A stretch of 21,351 bases of DNA from a virus (lineage: Duplodnaviria; Heunggongvirae; Uroviricota; Caudoviricetes): positions 1-21,351 of IMG/VR virus record IMGVR_UViG_2861043448_000004; one strand, written 5' to 3'. The notes beneath the pieces were generated by a model that saw only the letters and a program-made list of their open reading frames with translations, was not told the origin of the DNA and did no database searches. Each line of letters begins with the position of its first letter. The stretch's first letter is position 1. Below, in pieces: positions 2,766 to 21,351 of the stretch. A program made the position numbers and the translations under genes.

Positions 2766-2813
2766 CACTGTTTATCCATACAGTTAAAAATAATACTGTA
2801 TACAAATACAGTG
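2762..2813 (+). promoter_or_regulatory. Sigma70-like promoter overlapped by two LexA (SOS) boxes
   Basis: TTGACA at 2762..2767; two CTGT-N8-ACAG boxes at 2768..2783 (CTGTTTATCCATACAG) and 2796..2811 (CTGTATACAAATACAG), the second a near-consensus 20-mer TACTGTATACAAATACAGTG; located immediately upstream of the dinI-like gene. Confidence 0.6.
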
Positions 2814-2825
2814 TAGGGGACTTTT

Positions 2826-3074
2826 ATGCGTATTGAAATCTGCATAGCCAAAGAAAAAATGACTAAAATGCCAACCGGTGCTGTGGATGCGTTAAAGGAA
2901 GAATTAACCCGACGCATCAGTAAACGTTATGACGATGTAGAAGTGATCGTAAAAGCCACCAGCAACGATGGCCTTTCTGTTACGCGCACCGCTGATAAAG
3001 ATTCAGCTAAAACTTTTGTTCAGGAGACTCTGAAAGATACCTGGGAGTCTGCTGACGAGTGGTTTGTTCATTAA
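2826..3074 (+). CDS. DinI-family SOS-response protein (prophage copy)
   Basis: 82-aa translation [11 protein letters not shown]...[11 protein letters not shown] resembles E. coli DinI (MRIEVTIAK...TWESADDWFV) end to end; AGGGGA Shine-Dalgarno 5 nt upstream; preceded by LexA boxes. Confidence 0.85.
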
Positions 3075-3296: not shown

Positions 3297-3848
3297 ATGC
3301 ATGACAATATTTGGTTTACATATAAAGCACGTATCCAAGCGCACCATCGACTAGAATGGCTTGAAAAACACTCTCAATTTATCCTCGTTTGGTATGCTAT
3401 ATTGAGTGCGGTACTTTCAATTGTAACGTTGCGATTTCCAAAGGTTCTAGGAGATAATACAGATGTCGTTGCGGCGATACTTTCAGTGGCTCTACTGGGT
3501 ATTTCTCTGATCGTATCTAACCTAGATTTTCGTGGTCGAGCAATAGCCATGAGAAGGAATTATATTGCACTACAGCGACTCTATTTTGACATTACCACCA
3601 GTCAACAGTTATCTCTTGAACAGAAAGAAAAATATTTTAATTTGCTCAATGAGGTTGAGAATCACCGTGACATAGATGATAAAATTTCAAGGGTAACTCA
3701 AGTTGGACTTAAGACGAGGATCCCCACACAAAAAGAAAAAATAATTGTTATTTTATGGATATTACTTCGAATATTTATTACTGCCGCACTTTATATACTC
3801 CCATTAATATATCTTTGGATTGACTATGACTGCAAGCAGAATTTTTAA
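3297..3848 (+). CDS. Predicted multi-pass inner-membrane protein, partner of the reverse transcriptase
   Basis: 183-aa ORF with AGGA Shine-Dalgarno 6 nt upstream; hydrophobic helices FILVWYAILSAVLSIVTL, VVAAILSVALLGISLIVSNL and C-terminal IIVILWILLRIFITAALYILPLIYLWI; AT-rich codon usage unlike flanking genes; 3' end overlaps the RT start by 23 nt. Confidence 0.7.
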   Translation: MHDNIWFTYKARIQAHHRLEWLEKHSQFILVWYAILSAVLSIVTLRFPKVLGDNTDVVAAILSVALLGISLIVSNLDFRGRAIAMRRNYIALQRLYFDITTSQQLSLEQKEKYFNLLNEVENHRDIDDKISRVTQVGLKTRIPTQKEKIIVILWILLRIFITAALYILPLIYLWIDYDCKQNF

Positions 3849-5196
3849 AAAGTCATTCTCGAAAAAAAATCTTCTAAAAGTATACTCTGAAAAAATCAAA
3901 GAATCAGGAGCGATTGGCATAGATCGGATTCGCCCATCAAAACTTGATTTGACAATAAAAAATGAGATCACTTTCATTTTTGAAAAGGTTAATTCTGGCA
4001 ATTACAAATTTACAGCATATAAAGAAAAATTAATATCTAAAGGCGCTAACTCTACACCCAGACAGATTTCCATACCAACTGCTAGGGACAGAATTACTCT
4101 TAGAGCTCTCTGTGAATGCCTTACGGAAATATATCCTAAGTCCAGATTAAAACTACCACATACAGTAATTGACTCATTGAAAGAAGCATTAAACAACAGT
4201 CTATATGCTGAATATGCAAAAATAGATCTTAAAAGTTTCTATCCTTCAATTGAACATAAATTGATAATTAATGCAATAAAAAATAAAATTAGAAAAAAAG
4301 AAATTAGACAGTTAATAACATCATCATTAATCGTGCCTACTGTAAGTGGAACCACAGGAAGCAAAGGTATCCCTAATAATACCAGAGGAGTACCTCAGGG
4401 ATTAGCGATATCAAACATTTTAGCTGAAATATCACTATCTAATTTCGATGATGAAATCAATAAAATGCATGACATATGGTACATGCGATACGTTGATGAC
4501 ATTCTTATTTTAACACCAAAATATCAAGCAACAAAAATAGCTTCTCATATCATTGATAAGCTTCAATCATTAAATTTAAACCCACATCCATTAAATGAAG
4601 AGAACTCAAAATCCAAAGTAGGCAGTTTGGATGAAAGTTTTAACTTTTTGGGATACCACATAGAAAATCGAGAATTATTGATAAAACATGAGAGCATTCT
4701 TAGATTTGAGTCATCCTTAGCAAAAATTTTTACTGCATATAGGCACGCTCTACTACAAGCTAAAAGTAAGCGTGATAAAGAACGAGCTGTTGCATATTGT
4801 CAGTGGAAACTAAATCTCAGAATTACGGGATGTGTGTTTGAAGGTAAACGATTGGGATGGGTATCGTACTTCTCACAAATAACCTCAACAGCTCAACTTC
4901 GCTCTGTTAATCATACTATCAATAATCTTATCCGCCGATTCGGCCTTTCATCAGAAATAAAACCAAAATCTTTGATTAAAACTTTCTATGAACTCCGCAG
5001 AGGTAGAGCGGAGACTTTTAAATACATACCTAACTTTGACAATCTACATATATCTCAGAAACGAGAACTTGTTTCTATGTGGATAGGTAAAGAGAAGGAA
5101 AAAAAACTTAGCAATAGTGAAATAGAGAGGAAGTTTAAATTTAAAATTGCGAAATCAGTAAAAGAGCTTGAAGAGGATATTTCAGGAATATCATAG
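3826..5196 (+). CDS. Reverse transcriptase (defence-associated, non-retron motif pattern)
   Basis: 456 aa from the ATG at 3826 (track ORF begins at a TTG at 3820). RT motifs are all present: GIDRI, RQISIPTARDRITLRAL, YAEYAKIDLKSFYPSI, GVPQGLAISNILAEISL, YMRYVDDILIL (YVDD catalytic box), FNFLGYHI (FLG-type motif 7 rather than the retron VTG); about 170-aa C-terminal extension; AT-rich. Confidence 0.85.
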   Translation: MTASRIFKKSFSKKNLLKVYSEKIKESGAIGIDRIRPSKLDLTIKNEITFIFEKVNSGNYKFTAYKEKLISKGANSTPRQISIPTARDRITLRALCECLTEIYPKSRLKLPHTVIDSLKEALNNSLYAEYAKIDLKSFYPSIEHKLIINAIKNKIRKKEIRQLITSSLIVPTVSGTTGSKGIPNNTRGVPQGLAISNILAEISLSNFDDEINKMHDIWYMRYVDDILILTPKYQATKIASHIIDKLQSLNLNPHPLNEENSKSKVGSLDESFNFLGYHIENRELLIKHESILRFESSLAKIFTAYRHALLQAKSKRDKERAVAYCQWKLNLRITGCVFEGKRLGWVSYFSQITSTAQLRSVNHTINNLIRRFGLSSEIKPKSLIKTFYELRRGRAETFKYIPNFDNLHISQKRELVSMWIGKEKEKKLSNSEIERKFKFKIAKSVKELEEDISGIS

Positions 5197-5633: not shown

Positions 5634-8477
5634 TTATTTAGAGGCAAGCGCCGCCTCAATTGCAGATAATCTTTGTTTTAATTCTGCGTTTTCTTCTTCC
5701 AGCGCGGTAACGCGATCATCTGTTTCACGGGCGACCTGAACAAGTAAGCCCGTCACGGCGGCGTAGTCAACATTCAGATAACGTGTTTCTTCACGTAATT
5801 CATTGCCGTCAACCGTTGGTCCCTGCAACTCTTTACCGTAATGAGTGAATGAGCCTACCGCTTCCGGTATTGCCTCCATTGCTTCCTGTGCAATAACACC
5901 AGCGTAAGGCAGTCCGTTTTCCTTAAGTGTGTAGGTGTACCCGTTCATTTTACGGATAGCTTCGGTTGCGTCACTGATAATCTGAATATTGTCTTTCAGC
6001 TCGCGGTCTGATAACTGATTCAGTGTTGTACAGTTAATAGCACCGTTTACATCAAACAGCTGACCTGACGATGTTTTTTGAGCATAAAACAGATACGCGG
6101 CAGACGTTCCAACCTCAAAAACGTTTTGTCGATCACCTGAACCCCACACCTTGACAGCAAATGGTAGTTCTGTATTACCTAAGTTCTGTAAAACAAAACG
6201 ATTGCCAGTCCCTGTTTGTTTTGTAAGAGTTAAATCAACAGTTGAGTTAACCTCATCCTTGTTGATAGTGAGCGCCTGCGCTTTAGCACCGTTAACAGCA
6301 CCTGTTTTGAGTTGAACCGCGCCGTCATTACCATTTAGCAGTATCTCAGCTCCGCTAAAGAAATTTTTTAGCGACAGCATCTTACTTACGCCGACTGATG
6401 AACCCAACGCCCACGCGAGAGAATTACCGGTGCTATCAAACCCACGTACAAAGCAATCCATTTTGCTATAGTCTGACGTGCTTCCAAGGACATCAATCCG
6501 CCCTCCGCCAGATTTTATCGGGTTAGATGTGGTTAATGACCTGACAGCAAGAGCGGTAGATGAATTGAGATCGTCTACTGTTAGTAATTTCTTCCATTCC
6601 TGCGTCGTTCCATTTTCAATTGTTCTTCCCCAAAAACCGGAATTGCGGCCTCCGAACTGCACAGCATAATTTTTACTAAATTGAACATGAATGCCGCCAA
6701 GAACCATAGAGCCTGCCGGGCCGTTTGTACTGCCTGCAATTGGTCTAAATTTGTCGACGTTATCAGTATGCTGAGCGTTCCAGTCTCGTCCTGTTTTTGT
6801 AAGCAGTCCTAATGTCGTGTCGAGCGCTTCGGTTAAAGTAAGGTTTTTAAATTTAACTGCGCTACTTTCGCCAAGACTTAAGTTGTTTCGCGCATCTTCT
6901 ACTGTTGTCGCACCTGTACCTCCTTGCCCAACAGCTAATGGCAACCAGCCAGTGCCATTATGACAACCCCACAAACCAGATTTGGAAACCTGTAAGCGTG
7001 GTGCGCCTGAAGAATACGTAGAATATACGTAAGTTGTTTCTTTTCCCTCTTCAACCCTTTCTGTTGATACATCTCTCTTCCATTCAGACCAGGTACCGCT
7101 ACCTCCTTCATATATTCGTCTATAAGTAATTCCCGGATTATTATAAGGGTGGTACACCTGAACGCAGGAAGAAGCAGTGTTGGCTCTCGTTTGGAGCACT
7201 ATTAAAGCGCCCGCCAGACCGATTGGGTAATTTAATTCTTCTGTTGCGTAAGCGCTCGTTGGTTGTTGATAGAAACCAGAATATTCACCGGTAAGGGTGT
7301 TTAGGTCAGTATTAGCAAGGCCAGCTTTTTGCTCATACATTACCCGCAAGTTCGCACGTGCTTGCTCGATAGTTCTTCCACCAGTACCACCCTGGGCTAA
7401 ACCTAACGGAGACCATTGTCCAGAAGAAGAATCATAAACCCCCCAACTCCCGTTAGTATGGATTTCAAAGAAACGATCACCAGTTGGACCATACATACGA
7501 GTTGTTGATTCATTTTGACCAAAGCGGCTTAATTCATCTCTGCGGGTATGACGTATCCATTGCGGGCCAGAACTTTGGCTGTAAATGTACGAATACAATG
7601 ATTTTGTATCTGAACCAACAAATAGACCGGAATATCTTTTTGTTGACACTTCTGATCTAACTATATAACCAGAAATAAGATTATCCCCGGCACTAGACGC
7701 TACTGATGGATAACCTTTCGCTGAGATGTAAATCCTGATAAATCCAATATAACCTGATGGCTCAACAGAGATATCAGTGCAGGTCATAGCAACTTCACCA
7801 AGACCAATATTGTTACCAACAACGGATTGTGCCTGGTTGCGATAATTAAGTGCGTCCGCTGCAGATTTCGCCGCGTTTGTTTCACTGGATTTAGCATTAG
7901 TTTCGCTGCTCTTTGCTGCTGCCTCGCTATTTTTCGCGTTGGTTTCTGATTTTTTGGCTGCTGTCGCGGAGTTTGCCGATGCAGTTTGTGAGGCCGCTGC
8001 CGCCTGTGCGCTGTTATCCGCATTCGTCTCAGACGTTTTTGCGGCCTTCGCGGAATTTCCTGCCGCCGTTGCCGAAGAGGCTGCACTACTGGCGCTCGAG
8101 GCTGCGCTCGTTTCTGATGATTTCGCTGCCTCTTTTGAGGCCGCCGCATCCCGGGCTGAGGTGGCAGCTTCTGACGCTTTCGTGGTCGCGGTGGATGCAG
8201 AAGTGGCTGCAGATTTTTGTGACGCTGCAGCATTCGTTTCTGACGTTTTCGCCGCACCGGCACTGGTAGCCGCCGCGCTTTTTGAGGACTCTGCAGCGGC
8301 AGCACTTTTTGATGCTTCAGTAGCCTTTGTTGATGCCGTTCCTGCGCTGGAAGACGCTGACTGAGCCGACGTCGCGGCCTGCCCGGCTGATGTGCTGGCT
8401 GCACGTGCTGAGCCTGCAGCATCAGTCGCATGGGTTCCCAGAGCACCACGCTGGCCGACTGCTCCGCACGGGTGCAT
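5634..8477 (-). CDS. stf: Side tail fibre protein lacking its N-terminal region, with C-terminal intramolecular chaperone (peptidase S74-like) domain
   Basis: Ala/Ser-rich repeats (SARAASTSAGQAATSAQ..., KTSETNA repeats) align with the part of lambda Stf that starts around residue 150 (from memory); two GQGGTG...ARxNL collar repeats; C-terminal LSDRELKDNIQ...VDYAAVTGLLVQ with ENAELKQRL coiled coil is typical of the self-cleaving chaperone domain. The first ATG directly follows the in-frame TGA of the upstream terminase fragment. Confidence 0.75.
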   Translation of the reverse strand: MHPCGAVGQRGALGTHATDAAGSARAASTSAGQAATSAQSASSSAGTASTKATEASKSAAAAESSKSAAATSAGAAKTSETNAAASQKSAATSASTATTKASEAATSARDAAASKEAAKSSETSAASSASSAASSATAAGNSAKAAKTSETNADNSAQAAAASQTASANSATAAKKSETNAKNSEAAAKSSETNAKSSETNAAKSAADALNYRNQAQSVVGNNIGLGEVAMTCTDISVEPSGYIGFIRIYISAKGYPSVASSAGDNLISGYIVRSEVSTKRYSGLFVGSDTKSLYSYIYSQSSGPQWIRHTRRDELSRFGQNESTTRMYGPTGDRFFEIHTNGSWGVYDSSSGQWSPLGLAQGGTGGRTIEQARANLRVMYEQKAGLANTDLNTLTGEYSGFYQQPTSAYATEELNYPIGLAGALIVLQTRANTASSCVQVYHPYNNPGITYRRIYEGGSGTWSEWKRDVSTERVEEGKETTYVYSTYSSGAPRLQVSKSGLWGCHNGTGWLPLAVGQGGTGATTVEDARNNLSLGESSAVKFKNLTLTEALDTTLGLLTKTGRDWNAQHTDNVDKFRPIAGSTNGPAGSMVLGGIHVQFSKNYAVQFGGRNSGFWGRTIENGTTQEWKKLLTVDDLNSSTALAVRSLTTSNPIKSGGGRIDVLGSTSDYSKMDCFVRGFDSTGNSLAWALGSSVGVSKMLSLKNFFSGAEILLNGNDGAVQLKTGAVNGAKAQALTINKDEVNSTVDLTLTKQTGTGNRFVLQNLGNTELPFAVKVWGSGDRQNVFEVGTSAAYLFYAQKTSSGQLFDVNGAINCTTLNQLSDRELKDNIQIISDATEAIRKMNGYTYTLKENGLPYAGVIAQEAMEAIPEAVGSFTHYGKELQGPTVDGNELREETRYLNVDYAAVTGLLVQVARETDDRVTALEEENAELKQRLSAIEAALASK

Positions 8478-9890
8478 TCATTCAGTGTTTCCTGCCGGAT
8501 AGCTGGCCGGATCAATTCGCTGGCTCTCCCCGTCGCTGTCACCGCGCAATGACTGCGTGATGTTGTAACGATCAATAATCCAGCGTTCGCCACGGCTGCC
8601 ATAGCCCGTTACCTGAACCACAAAACGGCGATGACGTCCCGCCTGCACATCCACTGTCGCCACAAGGAAATTAACGCCATCCGGCACACTGCGGGAAGGA
8701 ACTGGCTCTGCCCGCTGCTCAAGCAATTCACTTTTTCGTTGCTCCATGCTGGCGCGGGGAAGATAAGGTAATCCCCAGTCGGTATTGATAACCGTCTTGA
8801 GTGTCTCTTCACTTCCGGTTGTCTCGTATTCCTGTTCTGCAGTAAGCAGTTTGTAAACGAGTTGCGAGAGTGTCTGATAAGCAGCTGCCGGCCCCTCCAT
8901 CCAGAATGACGCAATACGTGAACGCCGGGGATCACCATAACGACTGCCATCTGCATTGATGGATTCACCATCCCGTAACCAGACCCCACGTCCGTTCAGC
9001 TCGCGTTTTTGTTCAGGCAAAATCCGTCCTGAACAGGAAGGACACTGAATATAAGCCGCCTCACTTGCCAGCACAGGATCGGCAATATCACGGAAACCAG
9101 CAACCACATCGCCGCAGGGCTGAAAATACTCACCACAGTGTGGACAGGGCCAGTACCAGCGACGGCGATCGCCACGGTTATAGAGCGACAGGATCCCCGT
9201 GGTTGGTGGAGCCTCATGCGGTGAAGTCCGTCGCCATTTCACATCCTTCACATCCCTGCCGGGGGAACTCTCCACCAGCGTCATACCACTGGACATAAAT
9301 GTGGTGGTACGTTTTGAGGCAAGAGAGAAGGCATCCCCCTCACCATCAATATCTTCCGGAAAACGGTCATAATCCGTCAGCGCCACGCATTTATAATCTG
9401 ATGAAGACATGATATTGACTGACGGCCAGCCGATTTTCAGGTAGTTGCCAGCAAGGAATGTTCTGTCATAAACGTTGTTGTCATTTTTGTTCGGACTCAG
9501 GCGACTGACCACTTCCGGGCTGACGCGAAACGTTCTGGCGAGTCGTTTTTTGGAGTGTTCGCGGGCTTTTTCCTCCGTCATCTGAATGATCAGCATATCA
9601 GCAGGATCGCAAATCACGTTGTAAATCACCCAGCCGTCAATCAGGCCGATAGTCTTGCCGGTTCGTGCCGGGCCAACAAATATCACTGCGTCGTATTCAC
9701 GCGAGGCCAGGCAGTTCATAGGCTCAATAACATACGGTGCCACCAGCGGATCCCACGGGACTGAGTTCCCTGCCCCCATGGGCACCCGCATATACTGAGC
9801 AACGGCATCAGCAACCCGCATTCGTCTCGGTGCGCGAAGGATATAACCTGAATCGGTTCGTGCTGCCTTTGCGGTTTCCTGATTCAGCAT
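8478..9890 (-). pseudogene. Terminase large subunit (GpA family), C-terminally truncated
   Basis: 470 aa against about 640 in lambda gpA; contains GPARTGKT Walker-A-like motif, zinc-finger-like WPCPHCGEYFQ ... CPSCSG and WIIDRYNI resembling lambda gpA ACPHCGEE and SWLIDRQII; start overlaps the small-subunit stop (TAATG) with GGAGGAG Shine-Dalgarno; ORF ends abruptly at TGA directly abutting stf. Confidence 0.75.
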
Positions 9891-11299: not shown

Positions 11300-11326
11300 T
11301 TCTTCATCCTTTAGTGAGAGCGCTCA

Positions 11327-11354
11327 ACATACTACATACTACATACTACATAAT
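11327..11354. repeat. Tandem heptanucleotide repeat (ACATACT) x3 plus one imperfect unit
   Basis: ACATACT ACATACT ACATACT ACATAAT read directly; spans the Rz stop codon and the upstream region of the 79-aa gene. Confidence 0.85.
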
Positions 11355-11807
11355 GCACTGGGTGACGATATAGTTCTGCAGATAACTAATCTGTTTAGTC
11401 ACTGTGACGATTCGCTCTCTAAGGGTGAAATAATCCCGTTCAGCGGAGTCATTAAGTCGGGGGCTGGTAACATCGCCCAAGCTGCCGGTGCTGGTCGCTC
11501 CATTCGCGGGACATCTGGCGTTGAAGTGCAGCCCACACTTGCCAGTGCGAACACAACGCTGCAAATCATCAAGCTGCTTTTTAGCATCAGCTAAGTCCTT
11601 CGTGTATTTGGCATCCAGAGCCGCTACATCACGCTGGCGGATCTGCATGTCTTTGATGGTGGCGTTCGCCAGTTTCAGTTCTCTGGTGTTTTTGTCGCGC
11701 TGCTCTTTGTAAGTCATGGCGTTATCCCGGTAATGATTAACAGCCCATGACAGACAGACGATGATGCAGATAACCAGAGCGGAGATAATCGCGGTTAATC
11801 TGCTCAT
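11346..11807 (-). CDS. Rz: Spanin inner-membrane subunit Rz (i-spanin)
   Basis: [30 protein letters not shown]... is near-identical in its first ~70 residues to lambda Rz; ATG at 11807 overlaps the upstream stop (ATGA). Confidence 0.9.
11399..11587 (-). CDS. Rz1: Spanin outer-membrane lipoprotein Rz1 (o-spanin), embedded in the Rz +1 frame
   Basis: 62-aa ORF wholly inside Rz in another frame; lipobox LASVGC, proline-rich [12 protein letters not shown] and PLNGIISP motif shared with lambda Rz1. Confidence 0.8.
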
Positions 11808-12178
11808 TTCTGCCCCCACAAACAGACTTCACGCTCAATCTCCCGACGAGTCATCAGTCCTTTCCATTGCTTACCGCCAGCGTATGTCCAGCGACGTAGC
11901 TGATCACACGCACCTTTGATATCGTCCCGGTTGATTTTGCGAAGAAGCGTCGATGTTCTGAAATTTCCAGTATCCGGAGGAAACAACACGATCTCCACTG
12001 AAGCAGGTGCCGACGTTGGTTTCGGCAGACGACGTAACTGCTCAACTATTGCTGCGCACGCCGCGCTCTGAAATTTTCGCCCCGCCTCGCTTATCAGGCT
12101 CTTACCAGCAAATGCCCCTTTGTTGGGGTGTCGCCAGTACGTGTTCACACTGGGCGGGAAAGGAAGGATCAACTTCAT
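11804..12178 (-). pseudogene. Chimeric ORF: RusA resolvase N-terminus fused to endolysin C-terminus
   Basis: Residues 1 to about 68 (LPFPPSVNTYWRH...VEIVLFPPD) resemble RusA (LPWPPSNNRYYRH...) but stop before the catalytic acidic cluster; the remainder [54 protein letters not shown] matches the C-terminus of a DLP12 RrrD-type lysozyme (from memory). Confidence 0.6.
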
Positions 12179-12501
12179 ACTTTCAGGCCCCTCTCATGTA
12201 ACCAGTGGGCTGCACGCAACCTGGCGTTCTCCTCACCGGCAAGCAGTGCGCGGATGATACCGACCGCCTCGCTGTCGTCGTCCTTCACTGCGGTATGAAG
12301 CGTGATCCCCCGGGCCACGCCACGCTTTATCGTGATGACGCCTTTTTTCTCCAGTGCGCGAAGATGCTCCACGGCTGCATTCACTGAACGGTATCCCAGC
12401 ATGGTTGCCACCTCCTGATTGGTTGGCAGAAAGCCACGCTCTTGCTGGTAAGAAATCAGAATATCCAGCACCTGCTGCTGGCATTGAGTTAACGTCGTCA
12501 T
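12175..12501 (-). CDS. LexA-like winged-helix DNA-binding protein with no peptidase domain
   Basis: 108 aa; MTTLTQCQQQVLDILISYQQERGFLPTNQEVATMLGYRSVNAAVEHLRALEKKGVITIKRGVARGITL parallels LexA residues 1 to about 70 (MKALTARQQEVFDLI...[30 protein letters not shown]); no S24 Ser/Lys domain follows. Confidence 0.6.
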   Translation of the reverse strand: MTTLTQCQQQVLDILISYQQERGFLPTNQEVATMLGYRSVNAAVEHLRALEKKGVITIKRGVARGITLHTAVKDDDSEAVGIIRALLAGEENARLRAAHWLHERGLKV

Positions 12502-13151
12502 GCCGCCATCTCCCTAACCAGTTTTTCCGCCTGCTGGCGAACCTGCGCCAGAAACGCCTCACCACATGCCTCAAGTTCATCGCGCCCGATGTAGCTGATT
12601 GCCGGTCCCTTCCAGGTCTTATCGAAAACAGCAATAGCACCAGCGAAGAAAGCGCCTGTCGGCACCTGCTTCTCATCCTTCGGGATAAACCAGGCAGGCA
12701 GTTCAAAACCAATACGCCCGCGAATAAAAGCAATATGGTCCGCATCTTCCGGCCACCACACTTCGCTGGTGGCAGCTTTGATCAGGAAAACATAGCGCCC
12801 ACCCTTATCACGCATGGCACTGGCATGTTTCATGATGTAACGCATGCCGGTGATGTATTGCCCCTCATGCTGACTGGCGCGGCTGTATGGGGGATTACCA
12901 AAGGCAGCCCCTTTAAGCTCCGCAAGACGTTCTGACCAGTCATGCGCCAGCGCGTTGTCTTCCGCCGTGTAATACGCAGCACATTTGGCGTTATCACCGT
13001 CAGTGAACAGATCCAGAACAAACGGGCCAAACAGGGTGTTAATTCCCCAGAAAATGTTGTCCGGCGTGCGCCACTGATCGCCCACTTCCTTCAGTTCATG
13101 GGCTGGTTTGTTCCGCAGTTCCACCAGCGCCTGGCAATATTTATTACTCAT
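12498..13151 (-). CDS. Phage Dam-like DNA N6-adenine methyltransferase (orphan)
   Basis: 217 aa from the ATG at 13151 (TAATG overlap with the upstream stop); NPPY catalytic motif in AAFGNPPYSRAS; no adjacent restriction endonuclease. Confidence 0.75.
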   Translation of the reverse strand: MSNKYCQALVELRNKPAHELKEVGDQWRTPDNIFWGINTLFGPFVLDLFTDGDNAKCAAYYTAEDNALAHDWSERLAELKGAAFGNPPYSRASQHEGQYITGMRYIMKHASAMRDKGGRYVFLIKAATSEVWWPEDADHIAFIRGRIGFELPAWFIPKDEKQVPTGAFFAGAIAVFDKTWKGPAISYIGRDELEACGEAFLAQVRQQAEKLVREMAA

Positions 13152-13639
13152 TAAGCCCCCACGTAATTCCCTGACAGATACCACTCATCACCCGGTACAG
13201 CGCGCTTGCTGCTTTTCCGTAAACACCGCTCACGACGCGCAAGAAAATTGTTTCGCTCTGGCTGGGAGTGGCTTTCACGGAATGCCGCCATCCACACCGT
13301 TGCAGCACGACGGTATAAGCCCCTCGACTCCAGTTCTTCCGCCTGGCGGGTCAGGCACAAAATCACCCGGGGATCGTTAGTGCCGACATAGAAATTGCGC
13401 ACAGGTCTGGTTTCACGAACTGGTTGCGGTTCCGCCTCCTGCGCTCTCTCAGTCAGGCGCGGGAAATGTCTGCGTGTATCCCCTTCACAACGGTGAGCCA
13501 CACGACCACTCTGACGTAACTTGCTTGCTGACTGCAGAACGCGCTGCCGTGAGTAACCTGCAAAAGCATCCGCAATGTCTCCGGAAGTACACCCCGGATG
13601 GGCTTCAATGTATTTCTGAACTTCATTCAAAAGACTCAT
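13151..13639 (-). CDS. Hypothetical phage protein (YfdN-like; PerC-like motif near C-terminus)
   Basis: About 162 aa from the ATG at 13639; segment LESRGLYRRAATVWMAAF resembles the PerC/Pch family signature (from memory); translationally coupled on both sides. Confidence 0.45.
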   Translation of the reverse strand: MSLLNEVQKYIEAHPGCTSGDIADAFAGYSRQRVLQSASKLRQSGRVAHRCEGDTRRHFPRLTERAQEAEPQPVRETRPVRNFYVGTNDPRVILCLTRQAEELESRGLYRRAATVWMAAFRESHSQPERNNFLARRERCLRKSSKRAVPGDEWYLSGNYVGA

Positions 13640-13641
13640 GA

Positions 13642-14460
13642 TCACCCCCTGAATCCTGCCGGGATCTGGCTGTAGTCCACGTTGTCGTAACTGGCTTTGA
13701 AGTACGGGTCCTCGCGTCTGGCTGCAGATACCGCAGGAACTTCCCAGGATTCTTCGAAATGACGATCCGGACCAAAGAACGTGACAGCCTGTTTCACAAA
13801 TTGTGTGCCGCTGTTACCCATCGCAGATACCCAGCCCGCGTAGCGTTTCACACCTTCCAGCATGGTTTCGGGGTTTACCCCCTCATTCAAACGGGCTTTC
13901 CAGGCTTTGAAGGCTGCAGATTTTGAATTGCCACCAGCACGTTTGGGATATACCAGCCATGCCTGCTCAAACTCCGGAGAGTATTCCGGTCGGTTTGAAC
14001 GAACTCGCACGGACTCATCAACTGATGCACCAACAGCTATTGGTTCATTGACTGGTTCTTTGACTGGTTCAAAAGAGTGACTGGTTCTGGGTGAATCTCC
14101 TGCACTACCCCCTGGTGCAACTCCTGCACTACCTGGTGAATTTGCTGCACCAGATAGTGAATTATTTGCACTACCCCCTAGTGAATCTCCTGCACCATCC
14201 AGATGAAGGAGATAGATATTACTTGAGTTACCTTTTTCACCTTTCCGGGTGACTTTTTTTACCAGCCCGGACTCACAAAGGGCCGCAATATGATTCATCA
14301 CAGAACGTTTGCTAATCTCGCACTGGTCAGCAATATGCTGGTAGCTGGGCCAGCACTCACCCTGATCGCTGGCATTATCAGCCAGCTTGATCAGAACCAG
14401 TTTTCGCAATGGATTACCCACTCGAATTTTCATCGCTTTAACCATCAGCTCCATACTCAT
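13642..14460 (-). CDS. Phage replication initiation protein (N-terminal HTH, repeat linker, C-terminal domain)
   Basis: 272 aa; N-terminal LRKLVLIKLADNASDQGECWPSYQHIADQCEISKRSVMNHIAALCESGLVKK is a replication-initiator-type winged HTH; low-complexity Gly/Ser/Ala/Pro linker encoded by DNA direct repeats; gene order matches the lambda O position. Confidence 0.65.
   Translation of the reverse strand: MSMELMVKAMKIRVGNPLRKLVLIKLADNASDQGECWPSYQHIADQCEISKRSVMNHIAALCESGLVKKVTRKGEKGNSSNIYLLHLDGAGDSLGGSANNSLSGAANSPGSAGVAPGGSAGDSPRTSHSFEPVKEPVNEPIAVGASVDESVRVRSNRPEYSPEFEQAWLVYPKRAGGNSKSAAFKAWKARLNEGVNPETMLEGVKRYAGWVSAMGNSGTQFVKQAVTFFGPDRHFEESWEVPAVSAARREDPYFKASYDNVDYSQIPAGFRG
14049..14200. repeat. Direct-repeat arrays inside the replication gene (candidate origin iterons)
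   Basis: Three copies of TGACTGGTTC (14049..14086) then about five imperfect ~22-bp units of GGTGAATCTCCTGCACTACCCCCT type (14090..14200). Confidence 0.5.
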
Positions 14461-14693
14461 GCTGCACCTCCGAGATGCTTCATGTTTTTTCCGGAGCGAA
14501 AGGCTATAAGCGGCATACTGACGCGGTAATTACGGCCCAGCGGTTCACAAATCACCTTCTGGCATTCACGGTCAACCAGGCTAACACGTAGAACATGCCC
14601 TGCAGGTGTGGTGTACCACTGCCCAACTGTAGGAATTGATGTTTTTTTACGCTGAAGCAAACGGCAAATATTGAGGATCAACGGATTAAGCAT
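14457..14693 (-). CDS. Hypothetical small phage protein (78 aa)
   Basis: ORF with ATGA-type overlaps to both neighbours in the early-right operon; no recognised family. Confidence 0.45.
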   Translation of the reverse strand: MLNPLILNICRLLQRKKTSIPTVGQWYTTPAGHVLRVSLVDRECQKVICEPLGRNYRVSMPLIAFRSGKNMKHLGGAA

Positions 14694-15522
14694 GACGATG
14701 CCCTCCGCTGATATTCAGGAGACGGTGAATATGAAAATTAGCCTTATCCGCCAGACGAATACGTTCAGCCTGCAAGTTAAGAAGGGTTTCTACCAGAACT
14801 TGATGCGCCTGCGGATCCGAAAGAGTTACCTTGCGCAGAGCACGTAGTGCAGTTGTTACATAACTGAGTTTATGTAAGTCTTCATCATTCAGACGAGTGA
14901 GGGCTGGGACAGTAGCCATGATGGCAGCCTCCGATAACAGTGAATTACCTTCACCACCGGAAACGCCAATTTCGCTGGTGGTGAACTGAACGGGGTTGGC
15001 GTAACCGGCGTTATCGGAAACCGGCGCACCTTTCGGTGCCCCCGTCCAGCCCACCATAATTTGGGTGTGCACAGACGCAGACGATAAAAAAGACGCTGGC
15101 GCGTCATATATCGCCGATAACATTTCCAGGACGCCAATCCCGGCACCCGCTTTATAAGGTGCCTGAACAGTGTAACGTCCCGGAATGGCAGAATCAATGT
15201 GCTGGTGGTCCTTCACACTCAACAAAATCACGCCTGAATTTCCACAAAGGACTAAAGCACTCATGCGGGTAGTCTTTGCGAAGATAGATAACGCGCTGTG
15301 TTTCTGGCTCCCAACGAATAACATGGACATAAAGCCCTCTTCCGTCACGAAACCAGCGGTTAAGTTCCTGCACAACTCGCCCCCCACAGTCAGGTAAAGT
15401 TCTCTGTGGTTACTTACAGCCAGGTGATTTGGTAATCTGCATTCATGCCGTAACAACAGGTGTTCAGCGACACTGACCACCAGCTGTTGCGACAAACGGT
15501 TATTTGCCGTTAAACTGTTCAT
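14686..15522 (-). CDS. Hypothetical phage protein (278 aa), possibly YdaU-like
   Basis: Long intact ORF, translationally coupled to the upstream gene; family assignment tentative and from memory only. Confidence 0.5.
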   Translation of the reverse strand: MNSLTANNRLSQQLVVSVAEHLLLRHECRLPNHLAVSNHRELYLTVGGELCRNLTAGFVTEEGFMSMLFVGSQKHSALSIFAKTTRMSALVLCGNSGVILLSVKDHQHIDSAIPGRYTVQAPYKAGAGIGVLEMLSAIYDAPASFLSSASVHTQIMVGWTGAPKGAPVSDNAGYANPVQFTTSEIGVSGGEGNSLLSEAAIMATVPALTRLNDEDLHKLSYVTTALRALRKVTLSDPQAHQVLVETLLNLQAERIRLADKANFHIHRLLNISGGHRHA

Positions 15523-16082
15523 GCGTTAGTTTCTCCACAGACACAAAACGCCACGACGCCCGGAGCTGCACACTCGCGGGCGTCACTCTTTTCTGGAGCG
15601 CAAAAGATTTTGTAGACCAGTGCTGCATGCTCCTGGAGCTTCGAAATTGACAGATACAACTCATCATTAATTGCTGTCTGCTCGTGTGGCTCCACTACCC
15701 CATCTTCGATTGCCGAACGAATCTGCTTTGAGTAACTCCCGATCTGTTCGATGACTTCCAGCAGGCGCTGGTTTATATCGGCGTTCTCTACTTCCTCAAT
15801 TTCAGGAAGCGATACAAACACCCCACCAGCAGACTGTGCGACAGCATCCGCAATGTAGTGAGTGCCAGCCGCGCGCTGTAAAATCATTGCCCATCCCAGC
15901 GGGAAAATCTGATCGCCATCTGCACGAAGGCGGTTGAATAAAGCGTTCTCTGTTACATCCAGCCACTCAGCAGCTTCAGCGTAACCCCCCGGCAACGCCG
16001 CGATAGTTTTTCTGACAGCTTTCACGTACCACTCAGGCTGTTTTTCTACTTTCCAGTGATGCTTACCCACGGTTAGCCTCAT
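15519..16082 (-). CDS. Putative CII-like early regulatory protein (187 aa)
   Basis: Sits immediately downstream of the cro-like gene in the cII position; identity inferred from position more than from sequence. Confidence 0.4.
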   Translation of the reverse strand: MRLTVGKHHWKVEKQPEWYVKAVRKTIAALPGGYAEAAEWLDVTENALFNRLRADGDQIFPLGWAMILQRAAGTHYIADAVAQSAGGVFVSLPEIEEVENADINQRLLEVIEQIGSYSKQIRSAIEDGVVEPHEQTAINDELYLSISKLQEHAALVYKIFCAPEKSDARECAAPGVVAFCVCGETNA

Positions 16083-16113
16083 CGTTCTGTGGTTAAAAAT
16101 TGAAGGTGTTCTG

Positions 16114-16314
16114 TTAATCTTTCGGATAGATATCCGGTCTTAAGTCAGATTTCGTAATTGCACCTGACGTGCATTGCTCAAGTTTTTTAGCCAGCACAAA
16201 ACTGGCTTTTTTATAACCATTGAAAACCAGCCGTAAGTAGCCTGGTGTTGAGCCAACTTTTCCGGCCAACTCACCCTGCTGTTCTTTGGTTAAAGAGTCC
16301 CAATACGCTTTCAT
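16114..16314 (-). CDS. Cro/YdaS-family HTH regulator
   Basis: 66 aa from the ATG at 16314 (GGAGGT Shine-Dalgarno 7 nt upstream); MKAYWDSLTKEQQGELAGKVGSTPGYLRLVFNGYKKASF...LRPDIYPKD resembles Rac YdaS-type Cro proteins; divergent from CI. The 167-aa track ORF over-extends across the operators. Confidence 0.65.
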   Translation of the reverse strand: MKAYWDSLTKEQQGELAGKVGSTPGYLRLVFNGYKKASFVLAKKLEQCTSGAITKSDLRPDIYPKD

Positions 16315-16320
16315 ACAATA

Positions 16321-16387
16321 TGTACCTCCGGTATACATATTACATGATTGAGATGAACCTTCAAGATACTTGTACCTTATCGGTACA
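16321..16387. promoter_or_regulatory. OR-like operator cluster with divergent pR and pRM-like promoters
   Basis: Three 17-bp sites of form TGTACC-N5-GRTACA: TGTACCtccggTATACA (16321..16337), TGAACCttcaaGATACT (16354..16370), TGTACCttatcGGTACA (16371..16387). Minus-strand pR candidate TTGAAG-16-TAATAT; plus-strand TTGTAC (16370..16375) and TTTAAT (16393..16398) would place the transcript start at the CI ATG (leaderless, as for lambda pRM). Confidence 0.5.
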
Positions 16388-16404
16388 AAGGTTTTAATTT
16401 CTTT

Positions 16405-17079
16405 ATGAAAACAGTCCATGACATCCGGCGGTCTAACGCCAGAAAACTGAGAGATGGTGTTGGCGGGAATTCTTCCTTTGCCACCATGATTGATCGCGAG
16501 CCAACCCAGACCAGCAGGTTTATGGGAGATGGTGCAACTAAAAATATCGGTGACAGCATGGCACGGCACATCGAAAAATGTTTCGACCTGCCTGTCGGAT
16601 GGCTTGATCAAGAACACCAGACAACGAACATCACAAAAAAACCTGACGTTTCAATCACTAACAAACAAATAACGTTAGTCCCTGTCATATCATGGGTACA
16701 GGCCGGAGCATGGAAAGAAGTTGGCTATTCTGAGGTTGATTTGAGCACAGCAGAAACTTATCCCTGCCCTGTACCCTGTGGCGAAATGACTTATATCTTG
16801 CGGGTGATTGGTGATTCAATGATTGATGAGTACCGCCCGGGAGACATGATTTTTGTTGATCCTGAAGTCCCTGCCTGCCACGGTGACGACGTTATTGCAT
16901 TGATGCACGATACAGGCGAAACCACCTTCAAGCGGTTGATAGAAGATGGAACACAGCGTTACCTCAAAGCATTAAACCCAAACTGGCCTGAACCTTACAT
17001 TAAGATCAACGGTAATTGCTCTATAATTGGTACAGTGATTTTCTCAGGAAAACCAAGAAGATACAAAATAAAGGCCTAA
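16405..17079 (+). CDS. CI-like prophage repressor with LexA-type S24 autopeptidase domain
   Basis: 224 aa; N-terminal HTH; Ala-Gly cleavage site in WVQAGAWKE; catalytic Ser in VIGDSMIDEY and Lys in TTFKRLIEDG. Confidence 0.85.
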   Translation: MKTVHDIRRSNARKLRDGVGGNSSFATMIDREPTQTSRFMGDGATKNIGDSMARHIEKCFDLPVGWLDQEHQTTNITKKPDVSITNKQITLVPVISWVQAGAWKEVGYSEVDLSTAETYPCPVPCGEMTYILRVIGDSMIDEYRPGDMIFVDPEVPACHGDDVIALMHDTGETTFKRLIEDGTQRYLKALNPNWPEPYIKINGNCSIIGTVIFSGKPRRYKIKA

Positions 17080-20287: not shown

Positions 20288-20315
20288 TAACCCGTATATG
20301 TACGGGTTATTTTTC
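20288..20315 (+). terminator. Candidate intrinsic terminator between convergent genes
   Basis: AACCCGTAtatgTACGGGTT hairpin followed by ATTTTTC; overlaps the stop codon of the minus-strand gene. Confidence 0.45.
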
Positions 20316-20855
20316 TTTATCACTATCTTTTCTTGATTTGAACAATCCACTAACAACGAAACCAACCAAACCAACAATACTAATTGTACTTGTACCTAGT
20401 AATGCAACGATCGCTTCAACTGGAGCCTTTCCTTCATGTGCAATAAGAAACGATGTAAACATTGCGACAACGAATAAGCACCAACACGACATAAACCAAA
20501 CCGTGAATGATGCCATTTTTGTCCGGAGCTCATTGTCTATTTCTTTACCAGTTGCGTCAGCTATCTTATCCCGTACTTGTGATTTGAGCATATCAAGCTG
20601 AGCTTGAAGACTGTCCATTCTGTTCTGCTGCATAAACTCATGCAATGCACCAGTATTAGAACCAAACTCTTCTTCCTCCAGAATAGCCTTATTTTCTGAA
20701 GAAGAATCATCATCGCGTTCATGATTAGACGGCTCAAATGCGGATTCAAAAGCCTGCTCTTGACTGTCAGTAGAGTTTAAGGATGCTTCAGAGCGACCAT
20801 TTTCAACACCTGCGGCCGCTCCGATCAGTTTATAGATATCTGAATTATGAGACAT
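20307..20855 (-). CDS. Small membrane protein with acidic N-terminal region; candidate toxin partner of the Panacea protein
   Basis: 182 aa; N-terminal half acidic and polar with predicted coiled coil (LQAQLDMLKSQVRDKIADATGKEIDNELRTKM); C-terminal two hydrophobic helices (FTVWFMSCWCLFVVAMFTSFLIA and AIVALLGTSTISIVGLVGFVVSGLF); starts 22 bp downstream of the Panacea gene on the same strand. Confidence 0.55.
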   Translation of the reverse strand: MSHNSDIYKLIGAAAGVENGRSEASLNSTDSQEQAFESAFEPSNHERDDDSSSENKAILEEEEFGSNTGALHEFMQQNRMDSLQAQLDMLKSQVRDKIADATGKEIDNELRTKMASFTVWFMSCWCLFVVAMFTSFLIAHEGKAPVEAIVALLGTSTISIVGLVGFVVSGLFKSRKDSDKEK

Positions 20856-20877
20856 GTCATCCCTGAATATTACTTTT

Positions 20878-21351
20878 TCAGAGGCCCTGACATTGCTGTC
20901 GGTTATTCAATAAATCATGATAATAAGCCTTGATCGCATCATTTGAGATGATCGACGAGCCAATACCATTATAAGCTTGTGACCAAGGCGTACCTGGCAT
21001 ATGAGTTAGAGTTGATAACTCAATTCCATTTTTCGAGCCGTAAAACTTATAAACAGCCCCGATAATGCTCTCTGCTTGCGGATCCATAGTAACGATGCCA
21101 CCAAAAGGAGCTACTGCTACATTCGTAACAGGTTTATTCCCATAGTCTTTGAAAGCATCGTACATTCCAGGAATAACTGGACCGTACTTCCACGCGGAGA
21201 CACATTCATTGAGCAAAGGCTTACCTGTTAATGCTAAATAGTAACCATGGGCAATATAAGTAAGCTTCTGCAGTTGCATGTGGGTCAGAGGATTATGATG
21301 TTGGTTTCCCAACGTTATGAATTTATTGGCTATTTGTACCGGACTGTACAT
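20878..21351 (-). CDS. Panacea-domain (DUF4065, SocA-like) protein; candidate antitoxin
   Basis: 157 aa; MQLQKLTYIAHGYYLALTGKPLLNECVSAWKYGPVIPGMYDAFKDYG matches the Panacea core pattern (KLQKLLYyaqG ... pLf ... AW.yGPV ... Y). Start codon is the last three bases of the window, so the upstream region is unseen. Confidence 0.65.
   Translation of the reverse strand: MYSPVQIANKFITLGNQHHNPLTHMQLQKLTYIAHGYYLALTGKPLLNECVSAWKYGPVIPGMYDAFKDYGNKPVTNVAVAPFGGIVTMDPQAESIIGAVYKFYGSKNGIELSTLTHMPGTPWSQAYNGIGSSIISNDAIKAYYHDLLNNRQQCQGL

Follow-up and report, generated by a model that had tools for sequence, protein, structure and literature searches.

By itself, the N-terminal fragment of LexA retains SOS-box binding and repression, and has to be removed by ClpXP (PMC10584840), and a LexA DNA-binding domain joined to an unrelated dimeriser makes a working, tight repressor (PMC10521638). 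The only characterised phage protein belonging to the LexA N-terminal-domain (NTD) kind is gp6 of GIL01, a tectivirus of Bacillus thuringiensis. It is a truncated LexA homologue, 44% identical to the N-terminal domain of the host LexA, which binds a palindrome, GaCACAnnTGTGaC, located at −43.5 in the late promoter P3, and activates transcription (PMC6182141). LexA-domain-only proteins are common among predicted viral structures (BFVD), Tectiviridae included.

The window considered here, the whole stretch of 21,351 nucleotides that was analysed, matches with 100% identity a degraded lambdoid prophage that sits at dusA in several E. coli chromosomes. It contains a protein of the stand-alone phage LexA-NTD type, like gp6 going by the description of the latter. 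We use the name LexN for this 108-aa LexA-NTD-only protein, whose gene and parts are as follows.

12175..12501, minus strand: LexN coding sequence, 108 aa (open reading frame; Pfam, PHROG, NCBIfam and PDB matches; RefSeq)
12298..12501, minus strand: LexA-type winged helix-turn-helix (wHTH), residues 1–68 (helices 6–22, 28–35 and 40–52, and a two-strand wing)
12343..12387, minus strand: recognition helix SVNAAVEHLRALEKK, residues 39–53 (phmmer alignment to LexA; family alignment)
12280..12297, minus strand: flexible linker, residues 69–74 (pLDDT below 50 at 71–75; length depends on the subfamily)
12193..12279, minus strand: helical hairpin, residues 75–103 (helix 75–88, turn AGEEN, helix 93–103; two models, conservation)

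The preliminary description of the window took this gene for a LexA DNA-binding domain without the autopeptidase domain, and both halves of that claim are borne out. Pfam LexA_DNA_bind (PF01726) matches LexN with 63.3 bits against a gathering threshold of 23.7 (E = 1.8e-17), residues 1–65 lying on positions 1–65 of 65, that is, on the whole model. The possibility that profile searches would lead to an unrelated winged-helix family was not realized either, as other winged-helix Pfam families gave E ≥ 0.017, all under their cutoffs. Peptidase_S24 has no Pfam match in LexN, which stops at residue 108 with rusA next. The NCBIfam equivalog for full-length lexA (TIGR00498) scores 65.5 bits, under its cutoff of 110.95, and only model positions 1–91 of 203 are covered. 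LexN thus falls outside the LexA repressor proper, having neither a full-length match nor the S24 Ser/Lys dyad nor the Ala-Gly cleavage loop, and, with the S24 autopeptidase domain absent, also outside the RecA-cleavable phage CI/S24 repressors. Because there is no autopeptidase domain, RecA*-stimulated self-cleavage in cis is impossible, and in this sense the proposal that LexN is uncleavable by activated RecA holds.

PHROG 362 ("transcriptional repressor") matches the entire protein (E = 6.3e-57, residues 1–108 on profile positions 1–106 of 106), among solved structures the E. coli LexA DNA-binding domain is the closest in sequence (1lea, E = 1.6e-14), and no PADLOC model matches LexN at E ≤ 0.001. 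The assignment of fold and family to the LexA N-terminal domain is unambiguous. It is also not new, as the RefSeq entry, WP_032235543.1, is named "LexA family transcriptional regulator"; the domain architecture is already in public annotation. Compared with the E. coli LexA N-terminal domain (1lea, 3jso; PF01726) in its natural context, LexN lacks the S24 Ser119/Lys156 domain and hence dimerisation through a C-terminal domain, has residue E44 replaced, carries the hairpin 75–103 where LexA has its cleavage loop, is phage-encoded, and in this lineage is not autoregulated from an SOS-box promoter of its own.

According to Knegtel 1995, as cited in PMC13416735, the LexA residues that contact DNA are S39, N41, A42, E44 and E45. 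The LexN allele in the window has four of these five (S39, N41, A42 and E45) and has lost E44; in the phmmer alignment its recognition helix differs from that of LexA by P40V, E44V, K48R, A51E and R52K. We scored the DNA-reading residues in 17 family representatives aligned with E. coli LexA. S39 is present in all 17, N41 in 16 and A42 in 14, while R/K48, R/K52 and K53 are again found in 17/17; also retained in this alignment are A43, H46, L47, L50 and the wing motif R64-G65-I66. By contrast, E45 is kept in 9/17 only, and LexA E44 is replaced in every representative, by A, T, V, F or Y.

In the alignment columns, most LexN subfamilies have S-P-N-A-A as does E. coli LexA, where B. subtilis LexA has SSSTV. 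The altered-specificity mutant LexA408 carries its changes at positions 40–42, which suggests that a largely intact P-N-A would still read the T of CTGT. Judged by these residues, the recognition helix appears to be of the CTGT-reading gammaproteobacterial type. However, positions 42–45 read AAVE, AAAE, AATD, AVAL, TVFI or TIAG depending on the subfamily, although the hosts of all subfamilies are Enterobacterales with one common SOS box, and this variation looks more like diversifying operator specificity than like constraint to one host site. We considered residue 44 by itself as a specificity marker and rejected it, since full-length LexA proteins of other taxa also have V, R or H there; residue 44 therefore cannot settle the target of LexN.

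Two AlphaFold2 models of LexN, built from 12 and 20 family sequences, have mean pLDDT values of 80.6 and 84.2 and agree on three helices plus a two-strand wing (residues 6–68), a disordered linker (71–75) and a helical hairpin. Structure prediction had been proposed as a check against the LexA N-terminal domain, and a LexA-type winged helix-turn-helix is what both models predict. The hairpin has a pLDDT of about 88–90 in the two models. Its conserved positions are A79, hydrophobic residues at 80, 82, 83, 86 and 87, A93, R94, R96, A97 (17/17 representatives), an aromatic residue at 100, and L101. Two hydrophobic stripes, A79/V80/I82-I83/L86-L87 and A93/A97/W100/L101, are kept down to 37% identity. 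The C-terminal 35 residues of LexN are a conserved structured module and no leftover. A dimeric four-helix bundle would be the simplest reading, because two short helices cannot bury both stripes alone; we infer that the hairpin, which defines the LexN family, is a candidate dimerisation module.

This idea is meaningful because a LexA fragment still represses (PMC10584840) and fusions of the LexA head to other dimerisers work (PMC10521638). Those fragments and fusions resemble LexN in being LexA heads without the protease domain, and they bind SOS operators (PMC10584840; PMC10521638). They are, however, breakdown products or laboratory constructs with an unaltered helix, whereas LexN is natural and under selection, and has an altered position 44 and a candidate dimeriser. 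Gp6, as described, ends 14 residues after helix 3 and is thus without the hairpin (PMC6182141). The weaker structural matches of LexN include MecI, MntR/DtxR and MarR, in which a winged helix-turn-helix is followed by a helical dimeriser. The likeness to these regulators (MecI/BlaI, MntR/DtxR, MarR) is architectural, with no sequence relationship, and their dimerisation domains are larger.

The phmmer alignment between LexN and LexA does not end with the head but extends through the linker, placing A88-G89-E90 on LexA A84-G85-E86. An alignment running past the hinge hints that the LexN family descended from a lexA truncated after the cleavage region. We rejected A88-G89 as a retained Ala-Gly cleavage site, as the pair is not conserved (AN, VG, DD, HN, ER, SC and others occur in the family) and sits at the turn of the helical hairpin.

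Among 5426 complete E. coli genomes, 2232 (~41%) carry LexN, with up to 4 copies per genome. Proteins 93–98% identical to it are encoded by SfV (orf42), SfII, SfIV, mEp460, the cdtI phage, phage 1720a-02 and many Stx2 phages, where they are annotated as "LexA DNA binding domain protein", "repressor, lexA family" or "hypothetical", and as "unknown" for orf42 of SfV. An exhaustive profile search together with scans of viral and genome contigs added distant subfamilies, 37–49% identical, in prophages of Citrobacter, Salmonella, Hafnia, Klebsiella, Enterobacter, Buttiauxella and relatives, all of them of the same length and with the C-terminal hairpin retained. Pairwise dN/dS among 54 LexN alleles has a median of 0.05, and the family is under strong purifying selection. 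LexN is thus a genuine prophage gene, strongly conserved, that encodes a LexA DNA-binding head with a short helical tail. A literature search returned no functional work on the enterobacterial LexN family, and no binding, dimerisation or expression data.

In Enterobacterales prophages, LexN is almost always immediately upstream of rusA, and in 77 of 80 close loci the two genes stand in this order and overlap by 4 nt. A 4-nt overlap of LexN with the downstream gene recurs in 80 of 99 distant loci, in which the next gene encodes RusA in 51 cases and a 67-aa protein in 27, rusA sometimes following one gene further on (as in locus L083). The upstream neighbours vary, and include genes for Dam, a C5 methyltransferase, PerC, DinI/c22 and an O-like protein. 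The exhaustive search also returned proteins with two matched LexA-domain stretches. In a further group of loci (L119–L126, match at 4001..4207) a LexA-type head, RSPNAAASHLKALEKKG, is joined to an unrelated C-terminal domain of ~90 aa in place of the hairpin, again directly upstream of rusA.

Within the window, the minus strand carries, in order, a cro-like ymfT, a CII-like gene, an ash-family gene, the O-like HTH/DnaD_N gene, a PerC-family gene, a phage dam, LexN and rusA, and the divergent repressor gene lies on the plus strand:

16405..17079, plus strand: CI-like S24 repressor, YmfK-like (Pfam Peptidase_S24, E = 1.5e-26; annotation)
12498..14460, minus strand: upstream operon genes as a block (Pfam, RefSeq)
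13642..14460, minus strand: O-like HTH/DnaD_N replication protein (Pfam, RefSeq)
13151..13645, minus strand: PerC-family protein, 164 aa (Pfam, RefSeq)
12498..13151, minus strand: phage Dam methyltransferase (Pfam, RefSeq)
12510..12514, minus strand: Shine-Dalgarno sequence GGGAG within the 3' end of dam, 8 nt upstream of the LexN ATG (sequence)
12498..12501, minus strand: ATGA overlap of the dam stop (TGA) and the LexN start (ATG) (sequence, ORF coordinates)
12175..12178, minus strand: ATGA overlap of the LexN stop and the rusA start (sequence)
11804..12178, minus strand: N-terminus of RusA (~69 aa) fused in frame to the C-terminus of a phage lysozyme (Pfam, RefSeq pseudogene notes)

The preliminary description placed LexN in a translationally coupled early-right operon and reported an SOS-cleavable CI in the same stretch. 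Coupling is seen in the ATGA overlaps at both ends of LexN and in the GGGAG inside dam, and an S24 CI is indeed encoded at 16405..17079. This CI-like repressor controls the divergent early-right operon that includes LexN. An internal promoter for LexN was considered and rejected, as a scan of the minus strand from 11300 to 16500 returned no promoter-like site, and the only terminator-like site between pR and LexN on that strand is one weak 5-bp stem (15105..15092) in the ash open reading frame. Because it has no promoter of its own and the path from pR is nearly free of terminators, LexN is a delayed-early gene of the early-right operon.

Downstream, the operon is damaged. The Phage_lysozyme Pfam match covers residues 70–115 of the fusion open reading frame, of which the lysozyme part makes up the last ~55 aa. 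Relatives have RusA, KilA-N, DUF968/HNH and Q intact at this site, and megablast identity breaks at about 11971. A single deletion took the KilA-N, DUF968/HNH, Q and holin genes and most of the endolysin gene, and therefore the prophage cannot express its late genes.

The preliminary description also reported a promoter with two LexA boxes at dinI as a plausible local target, and two perfect boxes are indeed present:

2766..3074, plus strand: region of the dinI-like gene and its SOS boxes (gene at 2826..3074; possible local target)
2768..2783 and 2796..2811, plus strand: perfect CTGT-N8-ACAG boxes before the dinI-like gene (sequence)

The two boxes, CACTGTTTATCCATACAGTT and TACTGTATACAAATACAGTG, are closely spaced and directly upstream of the dinI-like gene, and they could possibly be a LexN target. 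A third perfect CTGT-N8-ACAG (15404..15419, CTCTGTGGTTACTTACAGCC) lies within the ash-family open reading frame; we discounted it as an operator and regard it as probably due to chance, as it is coding, has a G+C-rich spacer, and is present in loci with and without LexN.

A closer connection to the SOS circuit is seen in the Klebsiella/Enterobacter subfamily, in which a strong terminator, then a sigma-70-like promoter and then a perfect SOS box at −10/+1 are found 0.44–0.62 kb upstream of LexN, with dinI and/or an 82-aa open reading frame between this promoter and LexN:

L083 3507..4408 and L095 3209..4327: unit from terminator, promoter and SOS box through LexN, Klebsiella/Enterobacter subfamily

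No terminator was predicted between the SOS-box promoter and LexN in L083. The promoter places LexN of this subfamily in the SOS circuit, where, going by the arrangement of sites, it is probably induced by SOS and expressed together with DinI, which modulates RecA* activity.

Across 182 LexN loci, we searched for CTGT-Nx-ACAG with spacings of 0–16 nt. Only x = 8 is enriched, with 36 distinct sites against 2–10 at other spacings, and no alternative half-site spacing stands out; the abundant ACAG-N14-CTGT was set aside as it represents palindromes in coding sequence. Canonical SOS boxes are 4–7x over-represented in the 182 loci around LexN genes. However, in a control restricted to loci with identical CI, the mean number of boxes was 1.28 with LexN (39 loci) and 1.0 without (7 loci), a comparison that involves few LexN-negative loci and shared ancestry. 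This control showed no difference, and we do not rely on the enrichment of SOS boxes as evidence for the target. Individual boxes also occur in coding sequence elsewhere in the family's loci. A near-consensus SOS box, TACTGTTTTTATATACAGTA, lies in the part of a 230-aa S24 CI gene that encodes the hinge region (L010 1095..1114; at least 12 loci), and a strong one, TACTGTAAAAATAAACAGTG, covers codons 3–9 of a gene for a DPPY-motif DNA methyltransferase after Q (L003 8086..8105), being found in 12 loci, distant ones included.

Taken together, we hypothesize that LexN is an uncleavable surrogate of LexA. This is the single most likely reading, plausible if unproven, and we would put its probability at roughly 0.4. 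LexN is a delayed-early protein of lambdoid prophages in which a LexA-type winged helix-turn-helix is joined by a short flexible linker to a two-helix hairpin. In this model, the hairpin would pair two LexN subunits, standing in for the C-terminal domain of LexA, and the dimer would bind palindromes with CTGT-type half-sites (SOS-box-like) and repress. Having neither the S24 domain nor a functional cleavage site, LexN would escape inactivation by activated RecA. It would be produced from the early-right operon after CI has disappeared, while host LexA is being destroyed, and would re-impose repression on LexA-type operators in lytic development, the candidate targets being SOS genes of the host, dinI of the prophage itself and competitors under LexA control. 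Support for the surrogate is mixed. The putative CTGT-type helix, the hairpin, the repressing LexA fragment, the subfamily with an SOS-box promoter and the enrichment at x = 8 only speak for it; the loss of E44, the diversity at 42–45, the equal SOS-box counts and the gp6 precedent count against it. So does the report that phage 1720a-02 suppresses the co-resident prophage phiNP with Cro alone being sufficient (bioRxiv 10.1101/2025.01.01.630987); phage 1720a-02 carries LexN, which that study did not cover.

The surrogate has one serious rival, which we consider nearly as likely although still doubtful. LexN may be a regulator of the gp6 type, with a LexA head acquired in the distant past that has come to read operators of its own, different ones in different subfamilies, and that turns a promoter of the phage, or one particular promoter of the host, on or off without affecting the SOS regulon in general. 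The precedent of gp6 itself, in which a truncated homologue of LexA has a new operator and acts as an activator, argues for this, as do the universal loss of E44, the diversification of 42–45 between subfamilies, the lack of SOS-box enrichment in LexN-positive over LexN-negative loci, and the PHROG 362 and RefSeq labels, which speak only of a generic transcriptional regulator or repressor. LexN differs from gp6 in host clade and virus family. Against the gp6-type reading, LexN phages already have the Q antiterminator for control of their late genes. The base-reading residues are mostly still LexA-like, and CTGT-type palindromes at other spacings are not enriched. No candidate operator in the style of gp6 was identified for LexN; the late promoter and Q are deleted in this window, and LexN is without an upstream intergenic region for autoregulation.

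The remaining alternatives are much less probable than either the surrogate or the gp6-type regulator. That LexN assists or directs the Holliday-junction resolvase RusA, or is a mere translational leader for it, would explain why the order and the overlap with rusA persist while the upstream neighbours vary, but linkage alone can preserve gene order in the compact nin region, the 67-aa protein takes the place of RusA in 27 loci, RusA acts as a self-sufficient homodimer, and a strongly selected sequence-reading winged helix-turn-helix suggests site-specific binding; we regard this connection as improbable. Still less credible is a role as a decoy or trans-substrate, in which the segment LLAGE would mimic the Ala84-Gly85 loop of LexA and engage the S24 site of LexA, CI or UmuD, or else RecA*. 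It takes its appeal from the alignment of A88-G89-E90 with the LexA loop, and against it stand the lack of conservation of the A-G pair in the family and the position of the segment, which forms the turn of a helical hairpin predicted with confidence and is no beta-strand loop. Finally, LexN might be a functionless, decaying remnant of a captured lexA, as might be thought from the window's own prophage, which is defective, with Q and lysis genes deleted. The data on selection and conservation effectively refute this, with the low dN/dS among the 54 alleles, a length and hairpin conserved across subfamilies only 37–49% identical, and the presence of LexN in the functional phages SfV, SfII, mEp460, cdtI and Stx2 phages.

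Induction of prophages and of Shiga toxin, release of colicins, mutagenesis and tolerance to antibiotics are all driven by the SOS response. Should LexN bind SOS boxes, this response in E. coli and Shigella would have a hidden modifier in a prophage gene that is very common, and LexN would also be a natural case of the synthetic-biology design of a LexA head plus a foreign dimeriser. The most far-reaching version, which we hold to be rather unlikely, is that LexN is a RecA-proof stand-in for LexA, present in about four in ten E. coli genomes, that re-closes SOS-box promoters after induction or infection. If so, recA, sulA, umuDC and the phage's own dinI would be shut off, rivals under LexA control, such as colicin lysis operons and prophages whose induction runs via LexA-regulated antirepressors, would be silenced, and SOS output, mutagenesis and the competition among prophages would be influenced by a gene of a prophage. 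In Klebsiella and Enterobacter, LexN and dinI behind an SOS-box promoter would then constitute an SOS-induced, non-cleavable negative feedback loop. If LexN instead reads an operator of its own, it would be a second, Gram-negative case, beside gp6 of GIL01, of phages re-tooling the LexA head. The family is already catalogued; its significance rests on its prevalence and on a question that can easily be tested.

Several other features of the window deserve mention. On the minus strand at 5634..9890, the gene for the large terminase subunit runs directly into a 947-aa tail-fibre-like open reading frame; the otherwise identical chromosome NZ_CP101705 has ~2.25 kb extra there (portal and tail-L fragments), which indicates a further internal deletion in the window. 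At the far end of the prophage (20307..21351, minus strand), a Panacea-domain protein (RefSeq) and an adjoining 182-aa protein, for neither of which PADLOC gave a match, may be a toxin-antitoxin pair. Two genes upstream of LexN is the PerC-family gene, and the O-like, PerC and dam genes overlap and are translationally coupled; PerC/Pch proteins are activators of virulence loci in pathogenic E. coli. Adjoining int and dinI, at 3297..5196 on the plus strand, are a SLATT-domain protein and a reverse transcriptase of the defence-associated class UG17 (PADLOC RT_UG17, E = 1e-158; RTasSLATT, E = 1.5e-56), which are likely an anti-phage DRT moron.
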